A stretch of DNA of 16,538 nucleotides from a virus (taxonomy: Duplodnaviria; Heunggongvirae; Uroviricota; Caudoviricetes), in IMG/VR virus record IMGVR_UViG_2541047850_000009; one strand, given 5' to 3'. Both the position numbers and the translations under genes were made by a program. Positions 1-16,538 of this stretch are shown piece by piece (position 1 is the first letter of the stretch; each line of letters opens with the position of its first letter). The notes under the pieces were generated by a model. The model ran no database searches. It was not told the DNA's origin and saw nothing but the letters and a program-made list of their open reading frames with translations.

Positions 1-1230
1 ATGAGCAGAGCACTTAACAAACTGAGCGATACACAGCTGAGGAAAATCAACGGCACACCCGCCCAAAAAACAGCCTTTCTTAATGACGGTGGAAACCTGA
101 GCGTCAGGCATTCAACCAGTGGCCTTTTAACCTGGTATTTCACTTACAGGGCCGGAACGGGAAGGGGGGCACCACCGGAACGCATTAAGCTGGGAAATTA
201 TCCTGATCTGAGCCTGAAATCAGCCAGGGAAAAAGCCGCCCAGTGTCGCGCATGGCTGGCAGAGGGGAAAAATCCACGTCATGAGCTTAATTACACCGTA
301 CAGGAAGCGTTAAAGCCGGTAACGGTTGGTGATGCGCTCACCTACTGGCTTGAGTCGTACGCAAAGGAAAACCGTGTGGATTATGACCCACTGAAAAAGC
401 GGCTAAATAATCACGTAATACAGCACATTGGCCCTATGCCGCTGGATAAATGCGAGCTACGGCACTGGCTGGCCTGTTTTGATCGGGTGGCAAAGCAAGC
501 CCCTGTTTCCGCCGGGTTCCTGCTACAGACATGCAAGCAGGCGCTTAAGTTCTGCCGGAAGCGGCGCTATGCAATCAGCAACGTTCTTGATGATATGAGT
601 GTGGCGGACGTTGGGAAAAAACCGGATATAAGCGAGCGTGTCTTAAGCAACAAAGAACTTGGCGAATTATTGCAGGCACTGGACAAAAAAATATTCTCCC
701 CCTACTACATCGCGCTAATCCGCCTCCTGATTGTGTTCGGATGCCGGACGGTCGAACTTAGGTTATCGGAGATCGGCGAGTGGGATTTTACCGAAATGCT
801 CTGGACTGTTCCGAAGGAGCACAGCAAAACGAAGGTAGCCATATTCCGGCCCATACCGGAAGCAATACTGCCGTTCGTCACGCAGCTGGTGGAGCAGAAC
901 AAGCACACGGGCTTATTGCTGGGGGAAGTGAAACAGGAAACAAGCGTGTCGCAGTACGGCAGATTAGCGCACAGGAGGCTAAATCACCCTCACTGGTCAC
1001 TACATGACATCCGGCGCACCTTTACAACGATGCTGAACGATTTAGGCGTGGATCCTCACGTCGTGGAGCAGCTTACAGGCCACCAGATGCCAGGAATGCA
1101 GCGAGTTTATAATCATTCCCGTTATCTGGATGCTAAACGCAATGCGCTGGATATGTGGATGGAGCGGTTAGGGATACTGGCGGGAACACATGAAAACGTA
1201 ACCGCACTACCAGTAGCCAGAAGAAAATAA
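1..1230 (+). CDS. int: Tyrosine-type site-specific integrase (P4 / CP4-57-like)
   Basis: 409-aa ORF. C-terminal catalytic region carries the conserved tyrosine-recombinase pattern (HDIRRTF, LTGHQ, terminal VYNHSRY with the catalytic Tyr). N-terminal domain is typical of P4-type integrases. Confidence 0.9.
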   Translation: MSRALNKLSDTQLRKINGTPAQKTAFLNDGGNLSVRHSTSGLLTWYFTYRAGTGRGAPPERIKLGNYPDLSLKSAREKAAQCRAWLAEGKNPRHELNYTVQEALKPVTVGDALTYWLESYAKENRVDYDPLKKRLNNHVIQHIGPMPLDKCELRHWLACFDRVAKQAPVSAGFLLQTCKQALKFCRKRRYAISNVLDDMSVADVGKKPDISERVLSNKELGELLQALDKKIFSPYYIALIRLLIVFGCRTVELRLSEIGEWDFTEMLWTVPKEHSKTKVAIFRPIPEAILPFVTQLVEQNKHTGLLLGEVKQETSVSQYGRLAHRRLNHPHWSLHDIRRTFTTMLNDLGVDPHVVEQLTGHQMPGMQRVYNHSRYLDAKRNALDMWMERLGILAGTHENVTALPVARRK

Positions 1231-1247: not shown

Positions 1248-1263
1248 CAGTATGCGCATACTG
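1248..1263. promoter_or_regulatory. Perfect 16-bp palindrome CAGTATGCGCATACTG just downstream of the int stop
   Basis: Read directly from the sequence. Not followed by a T-run on either strand, so a protein-binding site is more likely than an intrinsic terminator. Confidence 0.3.
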
Positions 1264-1286
1264 GATATGCGAACAGATACAACGTG

Positions 1287-1323
1287 CAACAATGAGCAAC
1301 AATGTGGAACAACTACGAACAAG
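1287..1323 (-). repeat. Array of 10-bp-periodic direct repeats (minus-strand reading TTGTTC/TTGTTG + N4); candidate operator array
   Basis: Plus strand reads gcaacaa, gcaacaa, ggaacaa, cgaacaa at 10-bp spacing. The reverse complement matches 7465..7489 at 23 of 25 positions. Confidence 0.5.
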
Positions 1324-3682: not shown

Positions 3683-3982
3683 ATGAGAACATATTTATCT
3701 GGCTTGACTGCCAGCGGTTATGCACACCCCCAAATTATCCCCGGCGCTATTTATCTGGATAAGAACGGTAACAGAGTAACGGTAAAAGAACTGATGTTTG
3801 ACCGAGTGTATTTTATCCGTGATGGCTATTCATTTCTTAGTTCGCTGAACGTGGAGATCTTTATTAGCAGATTCAGGCGGGAAATCCCGCTTTCCAGAAA
3901 TAACCATGTGTCATGTATGGATGTTGATAAAAAACTACAGGAACTAAAAAACATGATTGCCGCGTGGAGAGAGCAGAAATGA
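3683..3982 (+). CDS. Hypothetical protein (99 aa), AT-rich gene
   Basis: ATG 6 nt after the previous stop. Its stop overlaps the primase start (ATGA). No family recognised. Confidence 0.5.
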   Translation: MRTYLSGLTASGYAHPQIIPGAIYLDKNGNRVTVKELMFDRVYFIRDGYSFLSSLNVEIFISRFRREIPLSRNNHVSCMDVDKKLQELKNMIAAWREQK

Positions 3983-6102
3983 AAAAAGCGCCAAATTTAA
4001 AACACCAGCCACGTGACAAAATGACGGAAGTCATCATTTTTGCGGGTAGTGATGCGTGGGCACATGCGAAGCAGTGGCAGGAACAGGACGGGCGACTGGC
4101 TGGCGACAGCGTGCCTCCTGTCTGGCTTGGAGAGCAACAACTTGCCGAACTGGATAAGCTGCAAATTGTGCCGGAAGGCCGAAAATCAGTACGCATATTC
4201 AGGGCCGGACATCTTGAGCCAGTAATGATCAAGGCGATTGGTCAGAAGCTGGCGGCGGCAGGCGTACAGGATGCAAATTTTTACCCTGATGGAATGCACG
4301 GTCAGGAGGTGGAGAACTGGCGCGAATATCTGGCCCGTGAGCGGCAGAATCTTTCTGATGGTCTGGTTATTGAGTTTCCGGTAAAGAAAAAAGATACCGG
4401 AAGCCATAGCGATGACGAATTAAAGCCACGCGTTGAAAGTCGCGCCGATGGTGTTTTCTGGGTAACGCCCAAAGTGGATAAGCAGTCAGGCGAAATTATC
4501 CGGCCTGAGACGTGGTTATGTTCTCCGCTTGAACTACTGGGAACGGGGACGATCGGTAAAGAGCATTACCGCGTGATGCGCTGGAAAAAAACCGCAAACC
4601 ATGAAGTCATCACAATGGCGATCCCGTGTGGTGGTATCGGCGACCGTGACGGCTGGCGGTTACTTAAAGATCACGGGCTGAACGTGACAACCAACGGCAA
4701 ATACAGGGCAATCCTGGCGGACTGGATGCAGTTAAGCGGAAGCCATGAGGAATGGCAGTTAAGCACAACAACGGGCTGGCATTTTGGCGCGTACATCATG
4801 CCGGACGGTTCGATCATTGGTGAATCTGAAAAACCGATCCTGTTTACCGGAAAAAGCGCCGCGATTAACGGTTATTCCGTGGCGGGCACGGCGGATGGCT
4901 GGCGCGACAGCGTGGCGCGGCTGGCTGGCGGTAATGCCTCAATGATGCTGGGTGTGGCAACGTCACTGGCAGCGCCTTTAATTGGCCTTGTGGGTGCTGA
5001 CGGCTTCGGGGTGCATCTTTTCGAACAGTCATCGGCAGGTAAGACCACCACGCAGAACATCGCATCAAGTTTATGGGGAGAGCCGGACGCGCAGCGGCTG
5101 ACCTGGTACGGCACGGCGTTAGGTATTGCCAATGAGGCCGAGGCCCATAATGACGGGCTTTTACCACTGGATGAGATAGGCCAGGCCGGAAATGCGCGGG
5201 AAGTGTCAACGTCTGCTTATACGCTGTTTAACGGTTCAGGGAAATTGCAGGGGGCGAAGGATGGCGGCAACAGGGAGATCAAACACTGGCGAACGGTGGC
5301 AATCAGCACCGGAGAAATGGACGTTGAGACATTCCTCAAAAGTGAGGGGATAAAAGTTAAGGCGGGGCAGCTTGTCCGACTGCTTAACGTTCCGATGGAA
5401 AAAGCCACGAAATTTCACGAATACAGCAACGGTAAGGAACATGCTGACGCGTTAAAGGATGCCTGGACAGCAAATCACGGGGCGGCGGGTCGTGAGTGGG
5501 TTAAATGGCTGGCAGGCCACCAGCAGGAGGCAAAGGATACGGTAAGGGAATGCCGCGAACGGTGGCGCAACCTGATACCGGAGAGCTACGGCGAGCAGGT
5601 CCACCGCGTGGGTGAACGTTTCGCCATACTGGAGGCCGCGCTTGTGCTTTCCGGTCATGTAACTGGCTGGGTCGTGCAGGAATGCCGCGACGCGATACAG
5701 CATAACTTTAATGCCTGGGTGAAGGAGTTCGGCACGGGTAACAGGGAATTTAAACAGATGGTTGAACAGGCTGAGGCGTTTTTGTCGTCGTTTGGGTTTA
5801 GCCGCTACCTTCCGTACCCCAATACAGATGAGCGTGATTTACCGATTAAAGAGCTTGCCGGATACAGAAAAGGGAGCATTCGCAACGAAGATGACGAGAT
5901 GCGCTATTACACGTTCCCGCACGTGTTTGAGAGTGAGATAGCGAAGGGATTTAATCCGGCGCATTTTGCGCGTGCCCTGGATGCTGCCGGAATGCTGGAG
6001 AAGGGAAGCGATCGCCGATACAAAAAAAAGGCGCTGGGCAAGATTGGGGGTAAGCAGCATGTTTTTTACGTGCTGATGTTCCAGCCTGATGATGAAGATT
6101 AA
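3979..6102 (+). CDS. Primase-helicase type replication protein (DUF927 / D5-like NTPase, P4 alpha-like)
   Basis: 707-aa ORF. P-loop-like FEQSSAGKTT and Walker-B-like LLPLDEIG in the central region. Sits immediately upstream of an iteron array. Domain family assigned from memory of typical satellite annotations. Confidence 0.75.
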   Translation: MKKAPNLKHQPRDKMTEVIIFAGSDAWAHAKQWQEQDGRLAGDSVPPVWLGEQQLAELDKLQIVPEGRKSVRIFRAGHLEPVMIKAIGQKLAAAGVQDANFYPDGMHGQEVENWREYLARERQNLSDGLVIEFPVKKKDTGSHSDDELKPRVESRADGVFWVTPKVDKQSGEIIRPETWLCSPLELLGTGTIGKEHYRVMRWKKTANHEVITMAIPCGGIGDRDGWRLLKDHGLNVTTNGKYRAILADWMQLSGSHEEWQLSTTTGWHFGAYIMPDGSIIGESEKPILFTGKSAAINGYSVAGTADGWRDSVARLAGGNASMMLGVATSLAAPLIGLVGADGFGVHLFEQSSAGKTTTQNIASSLWGEPDAQRLTWYGTALGIANEAEAHNDGLLPLDEIGQAGNAREVSTSAYTLFNGSGKLQGAKDGGNREIKHWRTVAISTGEMDVETFLKSEGIKVKAGQLVRLLNVPMEKATKFHEYSNGKEHADALKDAWTANHGAAGREWVKWLAGHQQEAKDTVRECRERWRNLIPESYGEQVHRVGERFAILEAALVLSGHVTGWVVQECRDAIQHNFNAWVKEFGTGNREFKQMVEQAEAFLSSFGFSRYLPYPNTDERDLPIKELAGYRKGSIRNEDDEMRYYTFPHVFESEIAKGFNPAHFARALDAAGMLEKGSDRRYKKKALGKIGGKQHVFYVLMFQPDDED

Positions 6103-6124
6103 TCCCCTGTGTGAGGAAAAAAAT

Positions 6125-6463
6125 TGCGGGTTATGCGGGTTATCCTGTGTATAAGTGTATTAAGTGCATGAATATAAAGGAAACCAATAACCCGCACGTA
6201 ACCCGCAAAAGGGCATTTATAACCCGCAAAAGCACGATTATAACCCGCTGGCGAATAACTGAAGTAACACCGGACAGTCATGCGTAACCCGCAGAAAAAA
6301 ACCGTTTGCGGGTTATTTTGAGCGTTTTGCGGGTTACGTGGTGAGCAAATAATAAACAGGGCGTTTTGCAAAATACTGATATAAAAGGATAAAAAATGGT
6401 TAGCACGCTAAGATAACCCAATAACCCGCATAACCCGCACATGTTTCTATATATATATAAATT
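6125..6463. repeat. Replication origin candidate: iteron array (9-bp TAACCCGCA in both orientations) plus AT-rich tract
   Basis: TGCGGGTTA at 6125, 6134, 6307, 6328. TAACCCGCA at 6188, 6199, 6220, 6285, 6422, 6431, with degenerate copies at 6241 and 6414. AT-rich tttctatatatatataaatt at 6443..6463. Confidence 0.7.
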
Positions 6464-11022: not shown

Positions 11023-11315
11023 CAGAAGAACTTATCACCCTGGAAGAAGTGAAACTCCATTGCCGCATCGATGGCGACGAGGAAGACCAGTTAATCAGCG
11101 GATACATTGCCGCATCGCTTGAGGCGTGCCAGATACATATAGGCAGGCGCTTTGATGACGGGCTGGCGTTCACGCCAGCCATAAAGATTGGCTGCATGAT
11201 GTTTATCGCTCACCTGTATGAAAATCGCCAGATTGTCGCGGATAACGCAAAAACACGCGTACCCATGACGATAGGCGCACTCTGGACGGCTTACCGTGAT
11301 GTGGGGGTGTACTGA
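11019..11315 (+). CDS. gp6-like head-tail connector protein
   Basis: 98 aa. N-terminal ITLEEVKLHCRIDGDEEDQLISGYIAAS matches the gp6-like connector pattern (ITLEE.K.HLRID.DDED.LI...I.AA). ATGA overlap with the previous gene. Confidence 0.7.
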   Translation: MTEELITLEEVKLHCRIDGDEEDQLISGYIAASLEACQIHIGRRFDDGLAFTPAIKIGCMMFIAHLYENRQIVADNAKTRVPMTIGALWTAYRDVGVY

Positions 11316-11755
11316 TGCCGTGGCAACCATTAAGACGATGCACAGAACCAGGCTGTAACAGGCGCGTGAAGTCCGGCAAGTGTGAGGAGCACAGGCGGGC
11401 GGCATGGCGTGCAGAGGATGCCAGACGAGGACACCGCCGCGCGCGTGGGTACTCCAGACAGTGGGACAAATACCGCGCCATGTATCTGAGTAAAAACCCG
11501 TTATGCGTGCGATGCCTTGAGAAGGGGATATATACGCCCGCCGTGGTGGTGGATCACATTATCCCCATCGATGGCGGCGATGATGTTCTCTTCTGGCCCG
11601 AATGGAACCATCAACCATTGTGCCAGGCGTGTCATAACCAGAAAACGAAATGGCTTGATCTGGCAACAAAAAGCAAGCGTGCCGCAGGTGGATTTCGTGA
11701 AGAGGAAGAACGGGCCGCTAACCGCAATAACTGGATGTATGACGCTGATGAATGA
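11315..11755 (+). CDS. HNH endonuclease (terminase-associated)
   Basis: Paired Cys motifs (CTEPGC, CVRC, CQACHNQ) and the His-Asn-His core VVDHIIP...WNHQPLC. Sits immediately upstream of terS/terL, as in cos-type HK97-like phages. Confidence 0.88.
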   Translation: MPWQPLRRCTEPGCNRRVKSGKCEEHRRAAWRAEDARRGHRRARGYSRQWDKYRAMYLSKNPLCVRCLEKGIYTPAVVVDHIIPIDGGDDVLFWPEWNHQPLCQACHNQKTKWLDLATKSKRAAGGFREEEERAANRNNWMYDADE

Positions 11756-11924: not shown

Positions 11925-12044
11925 GGCTGTATGACGGGGTGGGGGGCGTTTTCAGGACAAACCCGACCCCGCCGGGCACCGACCGCCTCCTCAAATTTTT
12001 ATGCACGGGAATTTTTTGAAAAATAATCTGGCGAAAAAATAAGC
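11925..12044. other. Candidate cos / packaging-initiation region upstream of terS
   Basis: G-rich (gacggggtggggggcg) then C-rich (cccgaccccgccgggcaccgaccgcctcc) segment, then an AT-rich tract. Lies between HNH and terS, where HNH-dependent cos sites usually sit. Confidence 0.3.
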
Positions 12045-12401
12045 ATGTCAAGACCACCGAAAGCCCCCGCCTACCTGGATGACATCGCCGTGAAGCAGTG
12101 GCGGGAAAAATCGCGGCAGCTTGCGGAACGGGGAGACCTGACCCCCGCCGACTGGAGCAATCTGGAACTGTATTGTGTCAACTACTCCATTTACCGGAAA
12201 GCCGTTGCAGACCTTGCGGCGCGCGGGTTCAGCATTGTTAACAGTCAGGGCGGCGAGAGCAGAAACCCCGCATTAAGCGCAAAATCCGACGCTGAAAGGG
12301 TGATGATAAAAATGGCCTCCTTGCTCGGTTTTGACCCGATAAGCCGCCGTAAAAATCCACCGGAAACAGAAGAAGAGGACGAGCTTGACCGCCTGGAATA
12401 A
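12045..12401 (+). CDS. terS: Terminase small subunit (P27-family-like)
   Basis: 118 aa, directly upstream of and overlapping terL. Acidic C-terminal tail. N-terminus (AVKQWREKSRQLAERGDLTPADWSNLELYC) resembles P27-type TerS. Confidence 0.75.
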   Translation: MSRPPKAPAYLDDIAVKQWREKSRQLAERGDLTPADWSNLELYCVNYSIYRKAVADLAARGFSIVNSQGGESRNPALSAKSDAERVMIKMASLLGFDPISRRKNPPETEEEDELDRLE

Positions 12402-14046
12402 GTACGCAGAAGACGTAAAAACGGGCAAAATTCCGGCCTGTAAACGGCTGAAACAGGCCGTTAAACGGTACTTTTCGGACCTTGAAAGCCCCCTTTACAC
12501 GTTCGATCGTGAGGTTGTGGAGCGGTTTATTGCCTTTTCCAGGGTGTGCCCGCACGTAAAAGGGCCGATGCGTGGCAGACCCATTGAGCTGGAGCCGTGG
12601 CAGCAGTTCGCCTTTGCGTGCATCCTCGGCTTTAAGGTTAAGGCCACCGGACGGCGCAAATACACGAGCGCCTTTATCGAAGTGCCGCGCAAAAATGCGA
12701 AATCCACGACCGCCGCGATTCTGGCTAACTGGTTTCTGATTATGGAGAACGGTCAGCAGGATATCTACACCGCAGCGGTGAGCCGTGACCAGGCGCGGAT
12801 CGTCTTTGATGATGCGCGTCAGATGTGCCTTTTATCCCGACCGTTACGCAGGCGGGTGAATATTCAGGCGCATAAGGTGATGCACCCGAAAAGCAACAGC
12901 CTGTTAAAGCCGCTGGCAGCAAAAGCGGCAACCATCGAGGGAACAAACCCCAGCCTTTCCATCGTGGACGAATACCACTTGCACCCCGATAACGGCGTTT
13001 ATTCCGCGCTTGAGCTGGGGATGGGCGCACGTCCCGAAGGGCTGTTATTTGCTATTACCACATCAGGCAGTAACGTCGTTTCAGCCTGTAAGCAGCACTA
13101 TGATTATTGCTGCCAGATCCTGGACGGCGAAGAGGTCAACGATTCAATTTTTGTACTGATTTACGAACTGGACGACGAAAACGAGGTTGATGATCCGGCG
13201 ATGTGGATAAAGGCGAACCCTAATATTGATGTTTCCGTGGATCGTGAAAAACTGGCCTCAACCATCCAGAAAGCGCGGGGTATTCCGTCGCAGTGGGTGG
13301 AGATGATGACAAAGCGATTTAATATCTGGTGCCAGGGGGCTACCCCGTGGATGGGTAACGGCGCATGGGCTGAGTGTGCCGGAACGTTCACGGAGGAAGA
13401 TTTACACGGCCAGGAGTGTTACGCGGGGCTGGACTTATCATCAACCAGCGATATTTCCAGCGTGTGCTATGCCTTTCCGGTCGGTAAAACCATTATGCTG
13501 GTTTCCCGTCACTATCTGCCGGAATTTCAGCTACAGAACCCCGCCAATAAAAACCGCGCCATCTATCGTCAGTGGGCTAAAGCAGGCTGGATACGCACAA
13601 CGCCTGGCGACTGCATTGATTACGACCGGATCAGAGATGACATCATGCAGGACGCGGAGAAATTTAATATCAGGCTGGTGGGCTTTGATACGTGGAACGC
13701 CACGCATCTCAGAACGCAATTACAGGGGGCAGGTTTTGAGGTGGAGCCGTTCCCGCAAACCTACCTCAGATTCAGTCCGGCGGCGAAATCGTTCGAAGTT
13801 TTTGTTAACCGCAGGGTGATTGTGCATCGTGGCGATCCGGTGTTGTCCTGGTCGATGAGTAACGTCGTGATGCAGAGTGACGCGAACGCCAATATCAAGC
13901 CGAACAAGAAAAAATCACCGAACAAGATAGACCCGAGCGTGGCGGCGCTGATGGCGTTTGGTACATTCCAGGCAGAGCATGAGGATTTTGCTTTTGATAT
14001 AAGCGACAGCCACCGCCAGAAACTGGAAGAATTTAGCGGGGTGTAA
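12385..14046 (+). CDS. terL: Terminase large subunit
   Basis: 553-aa ORF. P-loop-like VPRKNAKST in the N-terminal ATPase region and an acidic nuclease-type C-terminal half. Apparent TTG start at 12385, 5 nt after GAGGA, overlapping the terS end. Confidence 0.88.
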   Translation: MTAWNKYAEDVKTGKIPACKRLKQAVKRYFSDLESPLYTFDREVVERFIAFSRVCPHVKGPMRGRPIELEPWQQFAFACILGFKVKATGRRKYTSAFIEVPRKNAKSTTAAILANWFLIMENGQQDIYTAAVSRDQARIVFDDARQMCLLSRPLRRRVNIQAHKVMHPKSNSLLKPLAAKAATIEGTNPSLSIVDEYHLHPDNGVYSALELGMGARPEGLLFAITTSGSNVVSACKQHYDYCCQILDGEEVNDSIFVLIYELDDENEVDDPAMWIKANPNIDVSVDREKLASTIQKARGIPSQWVEMMTKRFNIWCQGATPWMGNGAWAECAGTFTEEDLHGQECYAGLDLSSTSDISSVCYAFPVGKTIMLVSRHYLPEFQLQNPANKNRAIYRQWAKAGWIRTTPGDCIDYDRIRDDIMQDAEKFNIRLVGFDTWNATHLRTQLQGAGFEVEPFPQTYLRFSPAAKSFEVFVNRRVIVHRGDPVLSWSMSNVVMQSDANANIKPNKKKSPNKIDPSVAALMAFGTFQAEHEDFAFDISDSHRQKLEEFSGV

Positions 14047-14059
14047 TGAGGTCAGCAGC

Positions 14060-14341
14060 ATGACAGAAGCCGAAATAACGGGATTAATCCGCCGCGTTGC
14101 CGGAATCAGCCAGCAGGCTGACGAACAGGCCACGCAGCCGGACAGCGTGACAGCCGAAAACTATGCGCGTGTTGTTGCTGAGGTGATGCGCCGTGATGGT
14201 ATAGAACTTAATGGCGTGGATATGCGCAACATACGAACCAGAGTTCTTGAGTTGCTGGCCTACCGTCGCCGTGTGGAGATGTATCGGGAGAAGGAGAAAA
14301 TAACGTACCACTGGAAGAAGCCGGAGCGGTTGCGGCGGTAA
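14060..14341 (+). CDS. Hypothetical protein (93 aa), last gene of the island
   Basis: ATG 9 nt after GAGG. Arg-rich C-terminus. No family recognised. Confidence 0.45.
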   Translation: MTEAEITGLIRRVAGISQQADEQATQPDSVTAENYARVVAEVMRRDGIELNGVDMRNIRTRVLELLAYRRRVEMYREKEKITYHWKKPERLRR

Positions 14342-14595
14342 CTGGTTGATATTCCCGACGGCCCAAAAATGGGTTGGCTACACCCCTCACAACTACGACA
14401 TTTTCGCAGTTTAATTAATGGTCAGCTTAATCGCTAACCCGCTGATATTTTCGGAAACCTCAATTTGAGGAAGTCGGCGCGGTAACTCGCTGAACTTTAA
14501 GCAAAGCGCAAAATTGCGCTTGCTGAATAATCATTATGATTACGCAGATGATTAAGGAATGACCGAAGGCGGAAATTCGCCTGTGGTTAATGGGG

Positions 14596-14615
14596 GAGTT
14601 GCAGATCTGCAACTC
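14596..14615. repeat. Perfect 20-bp palindrome GAGTTGCAGATCTGCAACTC
   Basis: Read directly. One of several dyads in the non-coding right end, alongside TGGGGATCCCCA at 14847..14858, AAGCGCAA-AA-TTGCGCTT at 14499..14516 and CCGGAA-AAAAA-TTCCGG at 14828..14844. Confidence 0.4.
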
Positions 14616-14938
14616 GACCATGAAACTACGGAAACTACCCGTAGTTTGGGTAGTAAGAGTAACACCCAGATTTTGGGGCTTACTCGTGATACCCAAATTT
14701 GGGGTATCAGTGGCAACCATAACGACTTTCGTTACGGTTGATGCTTTTACCCCATTGGGGGAAAGGTATTACGATAATCATAACACCTACCGAACAGGTA
14801 AAGCCCACCAGCCTGATTAACGTTTAACCGGAAAAAAATTCCGGTAGGTGGGGATCCCCATATCGACATTAACGCCCCTCATGAATTGGTGCGCTTCCCC
14901 CTGGAAAGATGATCCGCCTGTATATTTCTTGTGTCTAT

Positions 14939-14958
14939 TTGTTCCACGTTGTTTCATA
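14939..14958 (+). repeat. Third copy of the TTGTTC repeat motif (TTGTTCCACG TTGTTTCATA), about 120 bp from the phoQ stop
   Basis: 15 of 15 identity with 7475..7489. Confidence 0.45.
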
Positions 14959-14971
14959 CAGTGCACCGAAC

Positions 14972-14993
14972 GGTGTAGTCACTGGTGTAGTCA
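14972..14993 (+). repeat. Tandem direct repeat GGTGTAGTCA (two copies, 12-bp period)
   Basis: Read directly: cGGTGTAGTCAct GGTGTAGTCAtt. Confidence 0.4.
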
Positions 14994-15077
14994 TTTTGCG
15001 ATTTTTGGCACTTTTTGCGGTGCAGATTACTTAATTAAATCAATGGTTTGTCTTGATATAGTGATAAAAGGACATAT

Positions 15078-16538
15078 TTATTCATCTTTCGGCGCAGAAT
15101 GCTGGCGACCAAAAATCACTTCCATCCGCGCACCGCCCAGCATGCTCTCTCCGGCGACGATTTTACCCTCATATTGCTCGGTGATTTCGCGGGCTACCGC
15201 CAGCCCCACACCTTGCCCAGGGCGTAAAGTATCAACCCGTTGACCACGGTCGAAAATGACCTCTCGCTTGCTTAATGGAATACCGGGGCCATCATCCTCG
15301 ACCACAATATAGAGATGCTCGTCGGTTTGCCTTGCAGAAATTTCGACAAACTCGAGGCAATATTTACAGGCGTTATCCAGCACGTTGCCCATCACTTCGA
15401 CAAAATCATTCTGCTCACCAACAAAGCTGATTTCTGGCGAGATATCGAGAGAGATATTGACCCCTTTGCGTTGATACACTTTGTTCAGCGCCGAGGTGAG
15501 ATTGTCCAACAGTGGCGCGACCGGATGCAGCTCGCGGCTAAGCAATGTCCCGCCGCGCATACTGGCACGATGCAGGTAGTAGCCAATTTGCTGTGAAATG
15601 CGGCTGATTTGCTCCAGCATTACCGGCTCAGCATCACTGACGCTCATCTTCTCACTACGCAGAGAACGCAGCGTACTTTGCAGCACCGCCAGTGGCGTTT
15701 TCAGACTATGGGTCAGGTCGGTGAGCGTTGTACGATATTTGTCGTAACGTTCGCGTTCACTTTTTAACAGTCGGTTCAGGTTTCGTACCAGACTGGTCAG
15801 TTCTCGCGTTGTGGCTGGATTGAGCAATTCACGGTTATGTTCTTCCAGTTCGCGGACTTCTTTTGCCAGGGCTTCGATGGGGCGTAAACTCCACCAGGCG
15901 GCGACCCACAGCAGCGGGATCACTAACAGCAGATTGGCTGAGAGCACATAGATAAACCAGCTCCAGACCATATAGGAACTTTTTAGCTCCACCGGAATGG
16001 TATCCACCACCACAATGGTTAACTTTGGCATCCGCGATGTTGCCGGGTAGACGTTTACCGCCACCGAGTGGGTCATCTCCGCGTCGTCATCATCTTCCCG
16101 CACTTCCTGCAACTGTTGCTGTATCGAATGATCTCCACTCAGCAAGAGGCTGGTATCGTTAACATCCGCTTCAATTTCATGAAAACCATTCGATTTCAGC
16201 CAGTCAGGCTGGATCATCTTCATCAGCCAGGGCACGTCACGTTGCGCCCATAAAAGCTGCCCGTTCTCATCATAAATTAGTGTCATCGTGGGGCTTTGCT
16301 TGTCGATATTTTCGGGTAACTCGACATGCAACTTATTGTTTTCCCACTTCGCAAGGGTATAGAACAGATTGCTCTCGCCACGTAACAGCCGAAACGTGGT
16401 TTTATCGAAACTGACGCTATAACCGATCAGCGCAACCATTCCGTAGGCAAGCGAAAGCACCAATACTACTGCTGCCGTTGCTAACAGAAAACGTACCCGC
16501 AGCGAGAGCGGGAAAAAAAGATGCAGTAATTTTTTCAT
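15078..16538 (-). CDS. phoQ: Sensor histidine kinase PhoQ of the PhoP/PhoQ two-component system
   Basis: 486-aa product recognised as PhoQ: two transmembrane segments, a periplasmic sensor with the acidic patch [10 protein letters not shown], the H-box [12 protein letters not shown], and an ATPase domain with DDGPGIP and GQGVGL. Complete ORF with its start at the window end. Confidence 0.96.

Follow-up and report, generated by a model that had tools for sequence, protein, structure and literature searches.

The window, the whole stretch of DNA analysed here, is 16,538 nt long. Judged from its sequence, it carries a capsid-forming PICI (cf-PICI) of the OI-51/CP-933C/EcCIEDL933 family, about 15 kb in size and located between roxA and phoQ. 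The roxA–phoQ locus is the site of OI-51 and EcCICFT073 (PMC3378721), and EcCIEDL933 is the prototype cf-PICI (bioRxiv 10.1101/2022.09.08.507074). Pfam matches in the window include an integrase, a DUF927 primase, an HK97-type capsid protein, protease, portal, HNH, TerS and TerL. The integrase, at window positions 1–1230, combines PF13356 Arm-DNA-bind_3 (E = 8e-18) with PF00589. The gene content is that of a cf-PICI of 10–15 kb: int, alpA, primase and origin are accompanied by the island's own HK97-type capsid, protease, portal, head-tail adaptors, HNH, TerS and TerL, while tail and lysis genes are absent according to Pfam, PHROG and the RefSeq annotation of close relatives. The last island gene encodes a 93-aa protein, and between its end and phoQ lies the stretch described below, 14342–15077.

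As the original prediction held, the stretch contains no credible ORF. Its five ORFs of 49–131 aa have no family match in PHROG, the longest plus-strand frame carries 1-nt and 9-nt deletions in natural variants, and PGAP leaves most genomes without annotation beneath the matching region. Hidden small genes were ruled out by the missing PHROG matches and the frame-breaking indels. ARAGORN finds no tRNA or tmRNA. The terminator scan, which looked for a G+C-rich hairpin with a U-tract behind it, returns for 14342–15077 a single weak match, at the 93-aa gene's stop codon, in line with the predicted lack of a clear terminator. Given this lack, transcription running on from the island genes could yield RNA antisense to phoQ, as suggested earlier. 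For the proposed structured non-coding RNA, a covariance-model scan of window 13900–15400 on both strands matched nothing in Rfam at E up to 1.

The density of palindromes is confirmed. Perfect stems of 6 bp or more, with loops of up to 8 nt, number 21 in the stretch, against 2.05±1.8 in 500 dinucleotide shuffles (max 10) and a mean of 2.4 (max 9) in 37 further 736-bp tiles taken from the window. For stems of 8 bp or longer the count is 6, with 0.15 expected. In 120-nt windows over about 14440–14800 either strand folds with z-scores of −4 to −7; over 14840–15080 the z-scores are close to 0. The perfect 20-bp palindrome GAGTTGCAGATCTGCAACTC (14596–14615) and the tandem GGTGTAGTCA (14972–14981 and 14984–14993) lie exactly where they had been placed, and the interleaved repeats are real (GAAACTAC twice, and AAACTACGG/CCGTAGTTT within 14623–14647). 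Three further elements exist at coordinates shifted by 2–5 nt: the 12-bp palindrome TGGGGATCCCCA is at 14849–14860 rather than 14847–14858, the 8-bp-arm dyad AAGCGCAAAATTGCGCTT at 14504–14521 rather than 14499–14516, and the ACCCA..TGGGG near-palindromes at 14664–14678 and 14690–14706 rather than 14669..14705. Boxes matching the IHF consensus, and a Chi site that is conserved, also lie in the region and had been overlooked.

Comparison with island-free K-12 places the junction at 15070–15079 and not at 14342, so the 735-bp stretch is island DNA. Host intergenic DNA is ruled out, since the stretch is missing from K-12. The boundary is marked by the 10-bp identity block GGACATATTT. Because the island's own attL falls outside the window, the core was sought in relatives 98% identical in the stretch, and GGACATATTT is found in attL and attR of both FORC_042 and CFT073. 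The attL reads ..GTGAAGTATGGACATATTT|TATCAATTAG and the attR ..GATAAAAGGACATATTT|ATTCATC. The K-12 attB is GTGAAGTATGGGCATATTTATTCATC, and at the phoQ stop attB is given as GGGCATATTT. The same non-coding DNA accompanies a sister island inserted in tqsA, with an integrase 89% identical and a different core, ATAACAGCA. The junction of the medically relevant OI-51/EcCIEDL933/EcCICFT073 family is thereby pinned to the phoQ stop codon. Since insertion exchanges the sequence downstream of phoQ, the phoPQ mRNA of strains carrying the island could have a different 3′ end.

The stretch consists of two unrelated parts, an att arm (14798–15079) and a non-coding mosaic (14342–14797). The palindrome-rich part is separable from att function and unrelated to it. 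The features of the first part are as follows.

14798–15069, no strand: P arm of attP, ~90% identical with EcCICFT073 and, up to 15043, also shared with tqsA-site islands
14805–14812, minus strand: Chi site CCACCAGC (= GCTGGTGG on the minus strand)
14827–14845, no strand: palindrome ACCGGAAAAAAATTCCGGT inside the arm
14849–14860, no strand: palindrome TGGGGATCCCCA inside the arm, also in CFT073
14939–14956, plus strand: direct repeats TTGTTCCA-cg-TTGTTTCA with 10-bp spacing, candidate AlpA/excisionase or Int arm sites
14972–14993, plus strand: tandem GGTGTAGTCA x2 with 12-bp period, candidate integrase arm-type sites
15038–15050, plus strand: IHF consensus AATCAATGGTTTG, 20 bp from the core
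15070–15079, strand not applicable: att core GGACATATTT, overlapping the phoQ stop codon (15078–15080)

We read the segment 14798–15079 as the P arm plus core of attP, a routine integration-site arm. The proposed right att site is thus upheld within the last ~140–280 bp, and the remainder of the 735 bp is not att. The suggestion of integrase and excisionase binding sites holds in that the layout fits arm-type Int, IHF and possibly AlpA sites, which are candidates by position and repetition. The arm has no excess of structure (folding z = +0.4 for 14798–15069). The core-proximal IHF consensus is kept in all phoQ-site islands examined (L006, L007, L080), and the whole window has 3 IHF consensus sites against 0.63 expected. 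The Chi site is kept at the equivalent place in L002, L006, L007, L009 and L080. With up to one mismatch, GGTGTAGTCA has 7 matches against 1.15 expected, both exact copies being the pair at 14972–14993; the tandem pair recurs on the arm next to int in CFT073, FORC_042 and the tqsA-site island. More copies of TTGTTCCA occur at 1305, 1423 and 7475, a phased TTGTTS array lies downstream of int at ~1255–1320, and the attL arm has four such TTGTTY repeats in identical order. A block of ~55 bp, TTGTTCCA-nn-TTGTTTCA ... GGTGTAGTnA x2, lies ~75 bp from the core and recurs as a direct repeat on the int-proximal arm. This arm-type block is retained in the tqsA-site island despite the different core, and window 14939–14991 matches the CFT073 attL arm (L080, 1352–1404) at 77%. 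The P4-type integrase would link the arm sites to the core through its N-terminal Arm-DNA-binding domain, IHF would bend the DNA at attP, and AlpA may recognise the TTGTTY repeats, phased at 10 bp, during excision.

The second part begins at the end of the 93-aa gene and contains the following features.

14060–14341, plus strand: last island gene; its product is a basic, helical protein of 93 aa, and the gene is the constant partner upstream of core B
14339–14351, minus strand: perfect IHF consensus TATCAACCAGTTA, overlapping the stop of the 93-aa gene; first copy of the CGGTAAC..TGATATT box
14336–14590, plus strand: module A, three copies of the box (14336, 14432, 14480) alternating with short hairpins; repeat family D1
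14361–14374, 14458–14470, 14504–14521 and 14528–14542: hairpins of module A, GCCCAAAAATGGGT, CCTCAATTTGAGG, AAGCGCAAAATTGCGCTT and TAATCATTATGATTA, respectively
14562–14587: terminator-like hairpin of module A, without U-tract, upstream of core B
14591–14713, plus strand: core B, a conserved element of ~120 nt with four hairpins
14590–14621: SL1 of core B, including the 20-bp palindrome 14596–14615
14623–14647: SL2 of core B
14648–14694: SL3 of core B
14687–14709: alternative hairpin of core B, TGATACCC..GGGTATCA
14700–14754, plus strand: SL4, a long imperfect hairpin, also in the cf-PICI relatives L006 and L007 and not in EcCICFT073

Seen across relatives, 14342–14797 is a non-coding mosaic that appears to evolve through duplication and swapping of small modules, which it has in common with other PICI lineages. 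The first unit of IHF-like box plus hairpin takes in the 3′ end of the 93-aa gene. Module A units number about 7 in L006 and none in L007, in which the TerS protein is identical, yet 14335–14711 is missing. The box itself occurs four times in the O157-type L006 and three times in CFT073, on a single strand throughout. CFT073 has box-plus-hairpin units and no B. A BLAST block at 14712–15100 covers SL4 in relatives, while the CFT073 match begins only at 14798. Two other identities were tried for module elements: a Fur box at 14526–14536 was judged a mere AT-rich palindrome (11/19 consensus positions by eye), and lambda boxB/nut-like hairpins were dropped because the loops misfit.

Core B is widely distributed: it is ~92–100% identical in >100 viral and metagenome contigs, with occurrences in 68+73 IMG/VR stretches and 61 metagenome stretches, and many E. 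coli genomes match the stretch in this segment alone. A genome has a median of one copy (max 6), and all copies with examined context (L001–L011) are at a PICI right end. Position and orientation are kept in 68/74 cases, with a homologue of the 93-aa protein 48–526 bp, mostly 48–51 bp, upstream of the 20-bp palindrome. This protein matches PHROG 1561 (E = 2.9e-56), a family without assigned function; it has no match in Pfam or PDB and no recognisable DNA-binding domain, and its AlphaFold model (pLDDT 58.7) is not usable. Its identity with Rpp was ruled out, as there are zero PDB-chain matches and the solved RppC structure (PMC6739421) is not among them. A contig scan with a single protein as query gave one locus only. 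A cargo hotspot with B at its left border was ruled out: in 26 loci having at least 2.5 kb of downstream sequence, what comes within 1 kb of B is mostly host genes, a second island or the remnant of a prophage rather than cargo.

Islands that share core B differ in integrase, replicase and packaging system, and this bears on whether the region is the island's packaging (cos) site or replication origin. Its place immediately after the terminase genes and one iteron-like 8-mer, TAACCCGC at 14435, would suit such a role. However, B does not co-vary with terminase type: it is found with P27-type TerS, 165-aa TerS, lambda Nu1-type TerS or none, and L007 does without A and B although it has the same TerS. 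Moreover, in lambda-type islands the lambda cosN precedes terS or the 93-aa gene (L010, L011, L080), so a cos site is contradicted for B. An origin is ruled out as well, because the actual iteron origin, with at least 12 TTGCGGGTTA iterons, is clustered at 6118–6460, and because the region is still 98% identical in FORC_042, where the replicase differs. We therefore regard either function as extremely unlikely. Core B is not present in EcCICFT073 or in O157-type islands of the EcCIEDL933 family (L006), which makes its role dispensable; it is an accessory element outside the excision-replication-packaging core.

Core B folds very strongly on both strands. The minimum free energy is −80.7 kcal/mol on the plus strand (z −7.9) and −77.6 on the minus strand (z −10.0). 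The covariation signal is weak among the 39 variants, which are very similar to one another. Over 34 pairs, pairing is kept in 98.4% of cells for the plus strand and in 97.2% for the minus strand, and one pair is fully compensated from A-T to C-G in two sequence backgrounds. Sites that pair only by wobble favour the plus strand in 5 cases and the minus strand in 3, an asymmetry that is not significant. Loops and linkers show the same degree of conservation as the stems, and conservation begins just ~10 nt ahead of SL1. The centre of the palindrome varies from GATC to GATT, the behaviour expected of a loop. The 20-bp palindrome also occurs by itself in L036, followed by other sequence.

A strong fold on either strand could reflect a single-stranded DNA signal for a host factor, such as a primosome-assembly or primase (ssi) site on the displaced strand in rolling-circle replication of the excised island. 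The independence of B from integrase, replicase and terminase types is what a host-factor site would show, sites for other host factors (IHF, Chi) cluster in the region, and core B adjoins an iteron origin cassette in L017, L027, L039, L056 and L087. In the first four of these a second B lies on the opposite side (the cassette flanked on both sides is elsewhere given as five contigs). The present origin, however, is 8 kb from B, and the islands of EcCICFT073 and O157 type manage without it; this signal is improbable in our estimate.

The perfect 20-bp dyad and the tight linkage of B to the gene of a small basic protein also raise the reading of the palindromes as double-stranded binding sites of a protein encoded by the island, either the 93-aa protein or a regulator, with the 20-bp palindrome as operator. 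The isolated palindrome of L036, with its changed downstream sequence, would agree with this. Against it, the commonest natural variant (GATTTG) breaks the centre of the dyad, the neighbouring hairpins have unrelated stems that one protein could not read, stems of 5–7 bp carry no meaning in duplex DNA, and the 93-aa protein lacks a recognisable DNA-binding domain. We consider an operator very unlikely.

Another question is whether 14342–14797 has a function at all. The region could be a set of recombination scars in a variable 3′ region, with B a recently spread fragment. Mosaicism is extreme and its breakpoints fall on module edges, the modules resemble a duplicated 3′ end of the 93-aa gene, and apparently intact islands exist without A and B. 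The low divergence of B, 7.8% against 17.4% for the adjoining 93-aa gene (87 comparisons), could likewise stem from recent recombinational spread and not from selection. Nevertheless, hairpins exceed shuffles about 10-fold, B diverges at about half the rate of its neighbour, and its position and orientation are constant in the 68/74 cases. The hairpins are also kept despite differing stems: at the equivalent position other islands have hairpins with at least six different stems. The hairpin just 5′ of B varies in this way around a constant A-rich loop, which speaks for selection on structure. We assign a functionless region a low probability.

An attP arm followed inward by a non-coding mosaic with core B is the overall explanation that we adopt with modest confidence. 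For the B-containing part, a structured 3′UTR of the late operon is our best guess, and a tentative one. The segment 14342–14797 would be transcribed with the late (capsid/terminase) operon, and the 3′UTR would serve as a 3′-end barrier or insulator before attP and int in the excised circle; it would likewise insulate from the convergent phoQ. In lambda-type PICIs (e.g. L005) the plus strand has, downstream of B, an intrinsic terminator whose tail is U-rich; this and the 5 versus 3 wobble sites speak for a plus-strand RNA. By eye, a hairpin and then a T-run stand at the equivalent place in L007. Several observations go against a 3′UTR. Both strands of B fold equally well; B has here no U-tract terminator after it, the terminator-like hairpin (14562–14587) being upstream; and the role leaves unexplained the two B copies around the iteron origin cassette (five contigs). 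The conservation of loops on a par with stems is unexpected for a mere exonuclease barrier.

That conservation of loops and linkers is compatible with accessory cargo in the form of a trans-acting sRNA, cut from the 3′ end of the late-operon/93-aa transcript and directed at RNA or protein targets of the host or helper phage. Hairpins followed by a U-tailed terminator, as in lambda-type PICIs, are the usual shape of a 3′UTR-derived sRNA, and the life cycle of the island does not depend on B. Accessory and immune cargo is known to reside at the 3′ end of PICIs (PMC11364771), which would suit this reading. On the other side, no promoter-like site brackets core B in the window and conserved sequence sets in no more than ~10 nt ahead of SL1; B is here without a downstream terminator; Rfam is blank at E up to 1; 50,697 phage records show no similarity at E up to 1e-5; and a full-text literature search for the core B sequence gave no match. 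No counterpart was found among known EHEC small RNAs, Esr41 being located in OI-43. In the Hfq-CRAC paper Sp7, OI-51, CP-933C and the neighbouring ECs loci are absent, and the supplement gave phoQ alone. A trans-acting sRNA is thus quite unlikely. Somewhat less remote, and still unlikely, is the broader view that core B and its obligatory upstream hairpin are a structured RNA, a non-coding cargo of unrelated E. coli satellite lineages. Such an RNA could be a 3′UTR-derived regulator or could act in cis on RNA polymerase or on RNase handling of the late transcript. If so, its effect would be on the interplay of satellite with helper or host rather than on the excision-replication-packaging cycle.

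The att arm is routine and supplies candidate Int, IHF and AlpA sites. Core B is undescribed in Rfam and in the literature searched, and no mention of a right-end non-coding region was found in the literature searched on EcCICFT073 and EcCIEDL933. To our knowledge, the accessory cargo of phage satellites has so far been protein-coding. If B is functional, it would be a non-coding accessory module of phage satellites; if it is functionless, the region is still a clear case of satellite 3′ ends evolving by shuffling of hairpin modules.

The right part of the stretch resembles the attP of lambda and of the P4 family (Arm-DNA-bind_3). Both have a short core in common with attB, an IHF consensus by the core, direct-repeat arm sites in each arm at a distance of ~75 bp from the core, and int adjoining one arm, and in both insertion restores the 3′ end of the host gene. 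The site sequences, in contrast, seem particular to the present island family, and giving the TTGTTY repeats to Int or to AlpA is guesswork.

The mosaic resembles REP/BIME elements, especially the IHF-containing BIME-1 (RIP/RIB): short imperfect palindromes are extragenic at operon 3′ ends, the IHF consensus is interleaved, and unit duplication expands or contracts the array. Unlike REP, which is dispersed round the chromosome, the copies here are confined to PICI right ends and have heterogeneous stems. A REP element itself was ruled out, since the 34-nt REP consensus is unmatched at up to 3 mismatches; the 13-nt REP core pattern has only chance-level matches, all outside the region.

Core B shares with structured 3′UTRs and 3′UTR-derived sRNAs of enterobacteria its place right after a stop codon, the same orientation and stable hairpins. 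It differs from such sRNAs in that here it has no following terminator and no Rfam match. Core B may also resemble processive antiterminator RNAs such as put of HK022, with its two stable hairpins and single-nucleotide spacer. SL1 and SL2 are likewise one nucleotide apart, and in some islands B is just upstream of a terminator; put, however, is near the operon start, whereas B is at the operon end.

A further likeness is to the right ends of the characterised E. coli PICIs EcCICFT073 and EcCIEDL933. These have the same roxA–phoQ site, ~90% identity over 14798–15079, the same 93-aa last gene and box-plus-hairpin units. In contrast to them, the present island has the additional core B and SL4-type sequence.

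The non-coding stretch at 14342–15077, between the gene of a 93-aa protein and phoQ, is indeed rich in palindromes, and the features originally listed in it are real. The 20-bp palindrome (14596–14615) and the tandem GGTGTAGTCA (14972–14993) lie exactly where they had been placed. The TGGGGATCCCCA palindrome (14849–14860), the 8-bp-arm dyad (14504–14521) and the ACCCA..TGGGG near-palindromes (14664–14678 and 14690–14706) are present, but shifted by 2–5 nt. The stretch holds 21 perfect stems (at least 6 bp, loop up to 8 nt) versus 2.05 ± 1.8 in dinucleotide shuffles (largest 10, n = 500) and a mean of 2.4 in other window tiles. For 120-nt windows the folding z-score is −4 to −7 over about 14440–14800, whichever strand is taken, and about 0 over 14840–15080. 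The claim that no credible ORF lies here is borne out: no PHROG family matched, and frame-breaking indels occur in natural variants. PGAP annotates almost nothing, and a scan of 14342–15077 found no intrinsic terminator and no promoter of note. In one genome only, PGAP calls a 50-aa 'hypothetical protein' (L009 3154–3306) with its ATG just 5' of the 20-bp palindrome. This is most likely an annotation artefact, since other genomes lack the call and its frame is broken in natural variants.

The window extends from the integrase start codon to the phoQ start codon, and its architecture is that of a capsid-forming phage-satellite island (cf-PICI). The following features were assigned, the first five by Pfam and PHROG:

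1–1230, P4-type tyrosine integrase with arm-binding domain
3964–6102, DUF927 primase
11315–11755, HNH endonuclease
12045–12401, P27-family TerS
12385–14046, TerL
14060–14341, last gene, 93-aa protein, PHROG 1561, no assigned function
6118–6460, replication origin, at least 12 iterons TTGCGGGTTA/TAACCCGCAA in both orientations
885, 6751, 9318, 9446, 10450 and 13674, plus strand, Chi sites (GCTGGTGG)
5517, 7085, 10895 and 14805, minus strand, Chi sites (GCTGGTGG)

An HK97-type major capsid protein, prohead protease and portal were also assigned, and no tail or lysis genes were found in the window. The iterons surround an A+T-rich stretch immediately 3' of the primase gene and mark the island's origin. 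The G+C-rich gap that separates terS from the HNH gene (11930–12000, GACGGGGTGGGGGGCG...CCCGACCCCGCCGGGCACCGACCGCC) is, by analogy with HK97-type phages, a likely candidate for the cos site. Ten Chi sites in 16.5 kb compare with about 0.5 for an 8-mer occurring at random, a density some three times the mean for E. coli. That at 14805 is kept in all related islands. Chi sites may protect against RecBCD in concatemer formation or packaging. The roxA–phoQ locus is also the site of O157:H7 OI-51/CP-933C/Sp7 and of the CFT073 island (PMC3378721), and the prototype cf-PICI is EcCIEDL933 (bioRxiv 10.1101/2022.09.08.507074).

The junction with the host does not fall at 14342, where it would have made this DNA ordinary intergenic sequence. 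Alignment with island-free K-12, whose roxA–phoQ spacer is only 75 bp and reads ...GTGAAGTATGGGCATATTTATTCATC... (its TTA being the complement of the phoQ stop codon), puts it at 15070–15079, and host intergenic DNA is thereby ruled out. In FORC_042 (98% identical to 14342–15077) and CFT073, the left junction reads ...GTGAAGTATGGACATATTT followed by TATCAATTAG, and the right one ...GATAAAAGGACATATTT followed by ATTCATC. The identity block GGACATATTT corresponds to 15070–15079 and overlaps the phoQ stop codon (15078–15080), so that 14342–15069 is island DNA. Independent support comes from a sister island inserted in tqsA, which carries the same non-coding DNA with 95% identity up to 15043. In K-12, an 11-bp inverted repeat GTTAAGCATCC...GGATGCTTAAC lies 3' of phoQ (L003 3742–3792). 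Insertion at the phoQ stop codon shifts it by about 15 kb, to the attL side, and the DNA downstream of phoQ in island carriers is therefore att-arm DNA, in which a scan found no terminator-like site.

The part next to phoQ, 14798–15079, is very probably the right att site that the original prediction had proposed, given the identity block, arm repeats on both island sides and an IHF consensus near the core. From 14798 to 15100 the window is about 90% identical to EcCICFT073, whose packaging module differs and which elsewhere in the stretch shares only one short similar unit. Two repeat blocks lie within the arm, TTGTTCCA-cg-TTGTTTCA at 14939–14956 and the tandem pair at 14972–14993. Both recur on the int-proximal arm in CFT073, FORC_042 and the tqsA-site island, with order and orientation kept, about 75 bp from the core on either arm. 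The tqsA-site integrase is 89% identical, with substitutions mostly in its N-terminal half; its island has unchanged arm blocks and a different core (ATAACAGCA), which indicates that the blocks track the integrase family and not the target. The perfect IHF consensus (15038–15050), kept in all phoQ-site islands examined, is 20 bp away from the core. Just past the 3' end of int, ahead of an AlpA-like gene (1594–1782), a roughly 10-bp-phased array of 5–6 TTGTTS repeats (1255–1320, minus strand) has a motif identical to that in both att arms; we infer that Int or AlpA may read the TTGTTY repeats. The absence of unusual structure in the arm fits protein-binding duplex DNA, and the att part is ordinary.

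The hairpins of 14342–14797 were divided into modules by comparison with relatives. Module A (14336–14590) has three copies of the box CGGTAAC-nn-G-n-TGATATT, each followed by a short hairpin, the first copy taking in the 93-aa gene's stop codon. The box matches the IHF consensus perfectly or almost so (background 0.22 per kb in all loci compared); four perfect boxes occur in the O157-type island L006 (about 7 units) and three in CFT073. At equivalent positions across islands the hairpins have wholly different stems (ACGC/GCGT, GCCCA/TGGGT, AGTGCA/TGCACT, GGCG/CGCC, GAAATT/AATTTC, CCAGT/ACTGG) and retain an A-rich loop. Stems of 5–7 bp are meaningless in duplex DNA, so their change points to selection on a single-stranded form, RNA or ssDNA. 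A competing explanation is that 14342–14797 is non-functional recombination debris; a related island (L007) with an identical TerS protein lacks the whole of 14335–14711 and has there, by eye, a hairpin and then a T-run.

Among the 1,318 E. coli genomes hit by the query, only the segment 14591–14713 (core B) matched in many, and exact-pattern scans located copies in 68 and 73 IMG/VR and 61 metagenome stretches, about 92–100% identical throughout. Its fold comprises SL1 (the 20-bp palindrome plus a 4-bp helix), SL2, SL3 and GATACCC/GGGTATC as an alternative hairpin, with minimum free energies of −80.7 kcal/mol on the plus strand (z −7.9) and −77.6 kcal/mol on the minus (z −10.0). A homologue of the 93-aa gene lies upstream in 68 of 74 instances, most commonly at 48–51 bp. 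In the most distant class core B diverges by 7.8% versus 17.4% for that gene, about half. Its islands are integrated at three or more sites (phoQ, tqsA, tRNA-Ile/mug) and have varied replicases (DUF927 primase, RepA-type helicase, other primases) and varied packaging (P27-type TerS, 165-aa TerS, lambda Nu1-type TerS with lambda cosN upstream, or no TerS); it also adjoins a truncated lambdoid prophage. Given this variety, core B cannot be explained as a cos, ori or Int site. EcCICFT073 and EcCIEDL933 are prototypes mobilised experimentally, and core B is absent from EcCICFT073 and the O157-type EcCIEDL933-family islands (L006), so it is accessory. Accessory cargo is known to sit at the 3' end of PICIs (PMC11364771); core B itself usually lies <1 kb from the island end (26 loci with long downstream sequence) and is thus not a cargo border.

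Lambda-type PICIs carry the unit cosN, Nu1-like terS, 93-aa gene, core B and terminator, and in 30 of 70 flanks core B has a Chi site adjoining its 5' edge. In many genomes such a PICI is directly joined to the head module of a lambdoid prophage, with a 5'-truncated gene at the start of the module (L010 2125–4477, L011, about 15 of the 26 IMG/VR loci whose downstream sequence is long), which suggests recurrent fusion. CFT073 has two inverted lambda cosN (GGGCGGCGACCT) upstream of the 93-aa gene, at 11059 (+) and 11798 (−) of L080, in agreement with the published cos1 and cos2 of EcCICFT073 (PMC6092414).

Because the copies of core B are so alike, evidence for RNA over DNA is thin. Across 34 pairs in 39 highly similar variants, pairing is kept in 98.4% of cells for the plus strand and 97.2% for the minus, and five variable sites pair only on the plus (G-U) and three only on the minus. 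One pair of the last hairpin is fully compensated from A-T to C-G in two different backgrounds, with mismatched intermediates. Variable columns make up 13/68 in stems versus 16/49 in unpaired positions. The palindromes could instead be a protein operator, but the centre of the 20-bp one varies like a loop, GATC becoming GATT in the commonest variant, which argues against a strict operator or Dam-site role. Core B may also be an ssDNA site for a host factor, a reading favoured by five contigs in which it neighbours an iteron origin cassette. In four of these (L017, about 4531–5090; L027, L039, L056) two direct copies 434 bp apart flank the cassette, whose TTGCGGGTTA iterons are those of 6118–6460; in L087 a single copy is seen, then the iterons. 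The double arrangement looks like a Campbell-type insertion through core B or an origin relocated to the island right end.

We tentatively propose that 14342–14797 would form a structured 3'UTR belonging to the late operon. Of the readings considered, this one agrees with most observations: it follows the last gene at a constant distance and in one orientation, its tiny hairpins point to selection at the level of structure, other islands have terminators at this place or after it, no promoter is present, and the region is dispensable. Lambda-type PICIs have an intrinsic terminator 3' of core B on the plus strand; the homologous hairpin in the window is 5' of core B and has no U-tract. A 3'UTR-derived sRNA is a rival; a structured non-coding RNA had been part of the original prediction, which as a whole is partly supported, and the Rfam covariance-model scan of both strands of 13900–15400 matched no family at E up to 1. 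Comparison with 50,697 phage records showed no similarity at E up to 1e-5, and a literature search gave no paper containing the core B sequence. The hairpin part, core B included, is an undescribed form of element types already known, namely REP/BIME-like arrays and structured 3'UTRs, and its function is putative.
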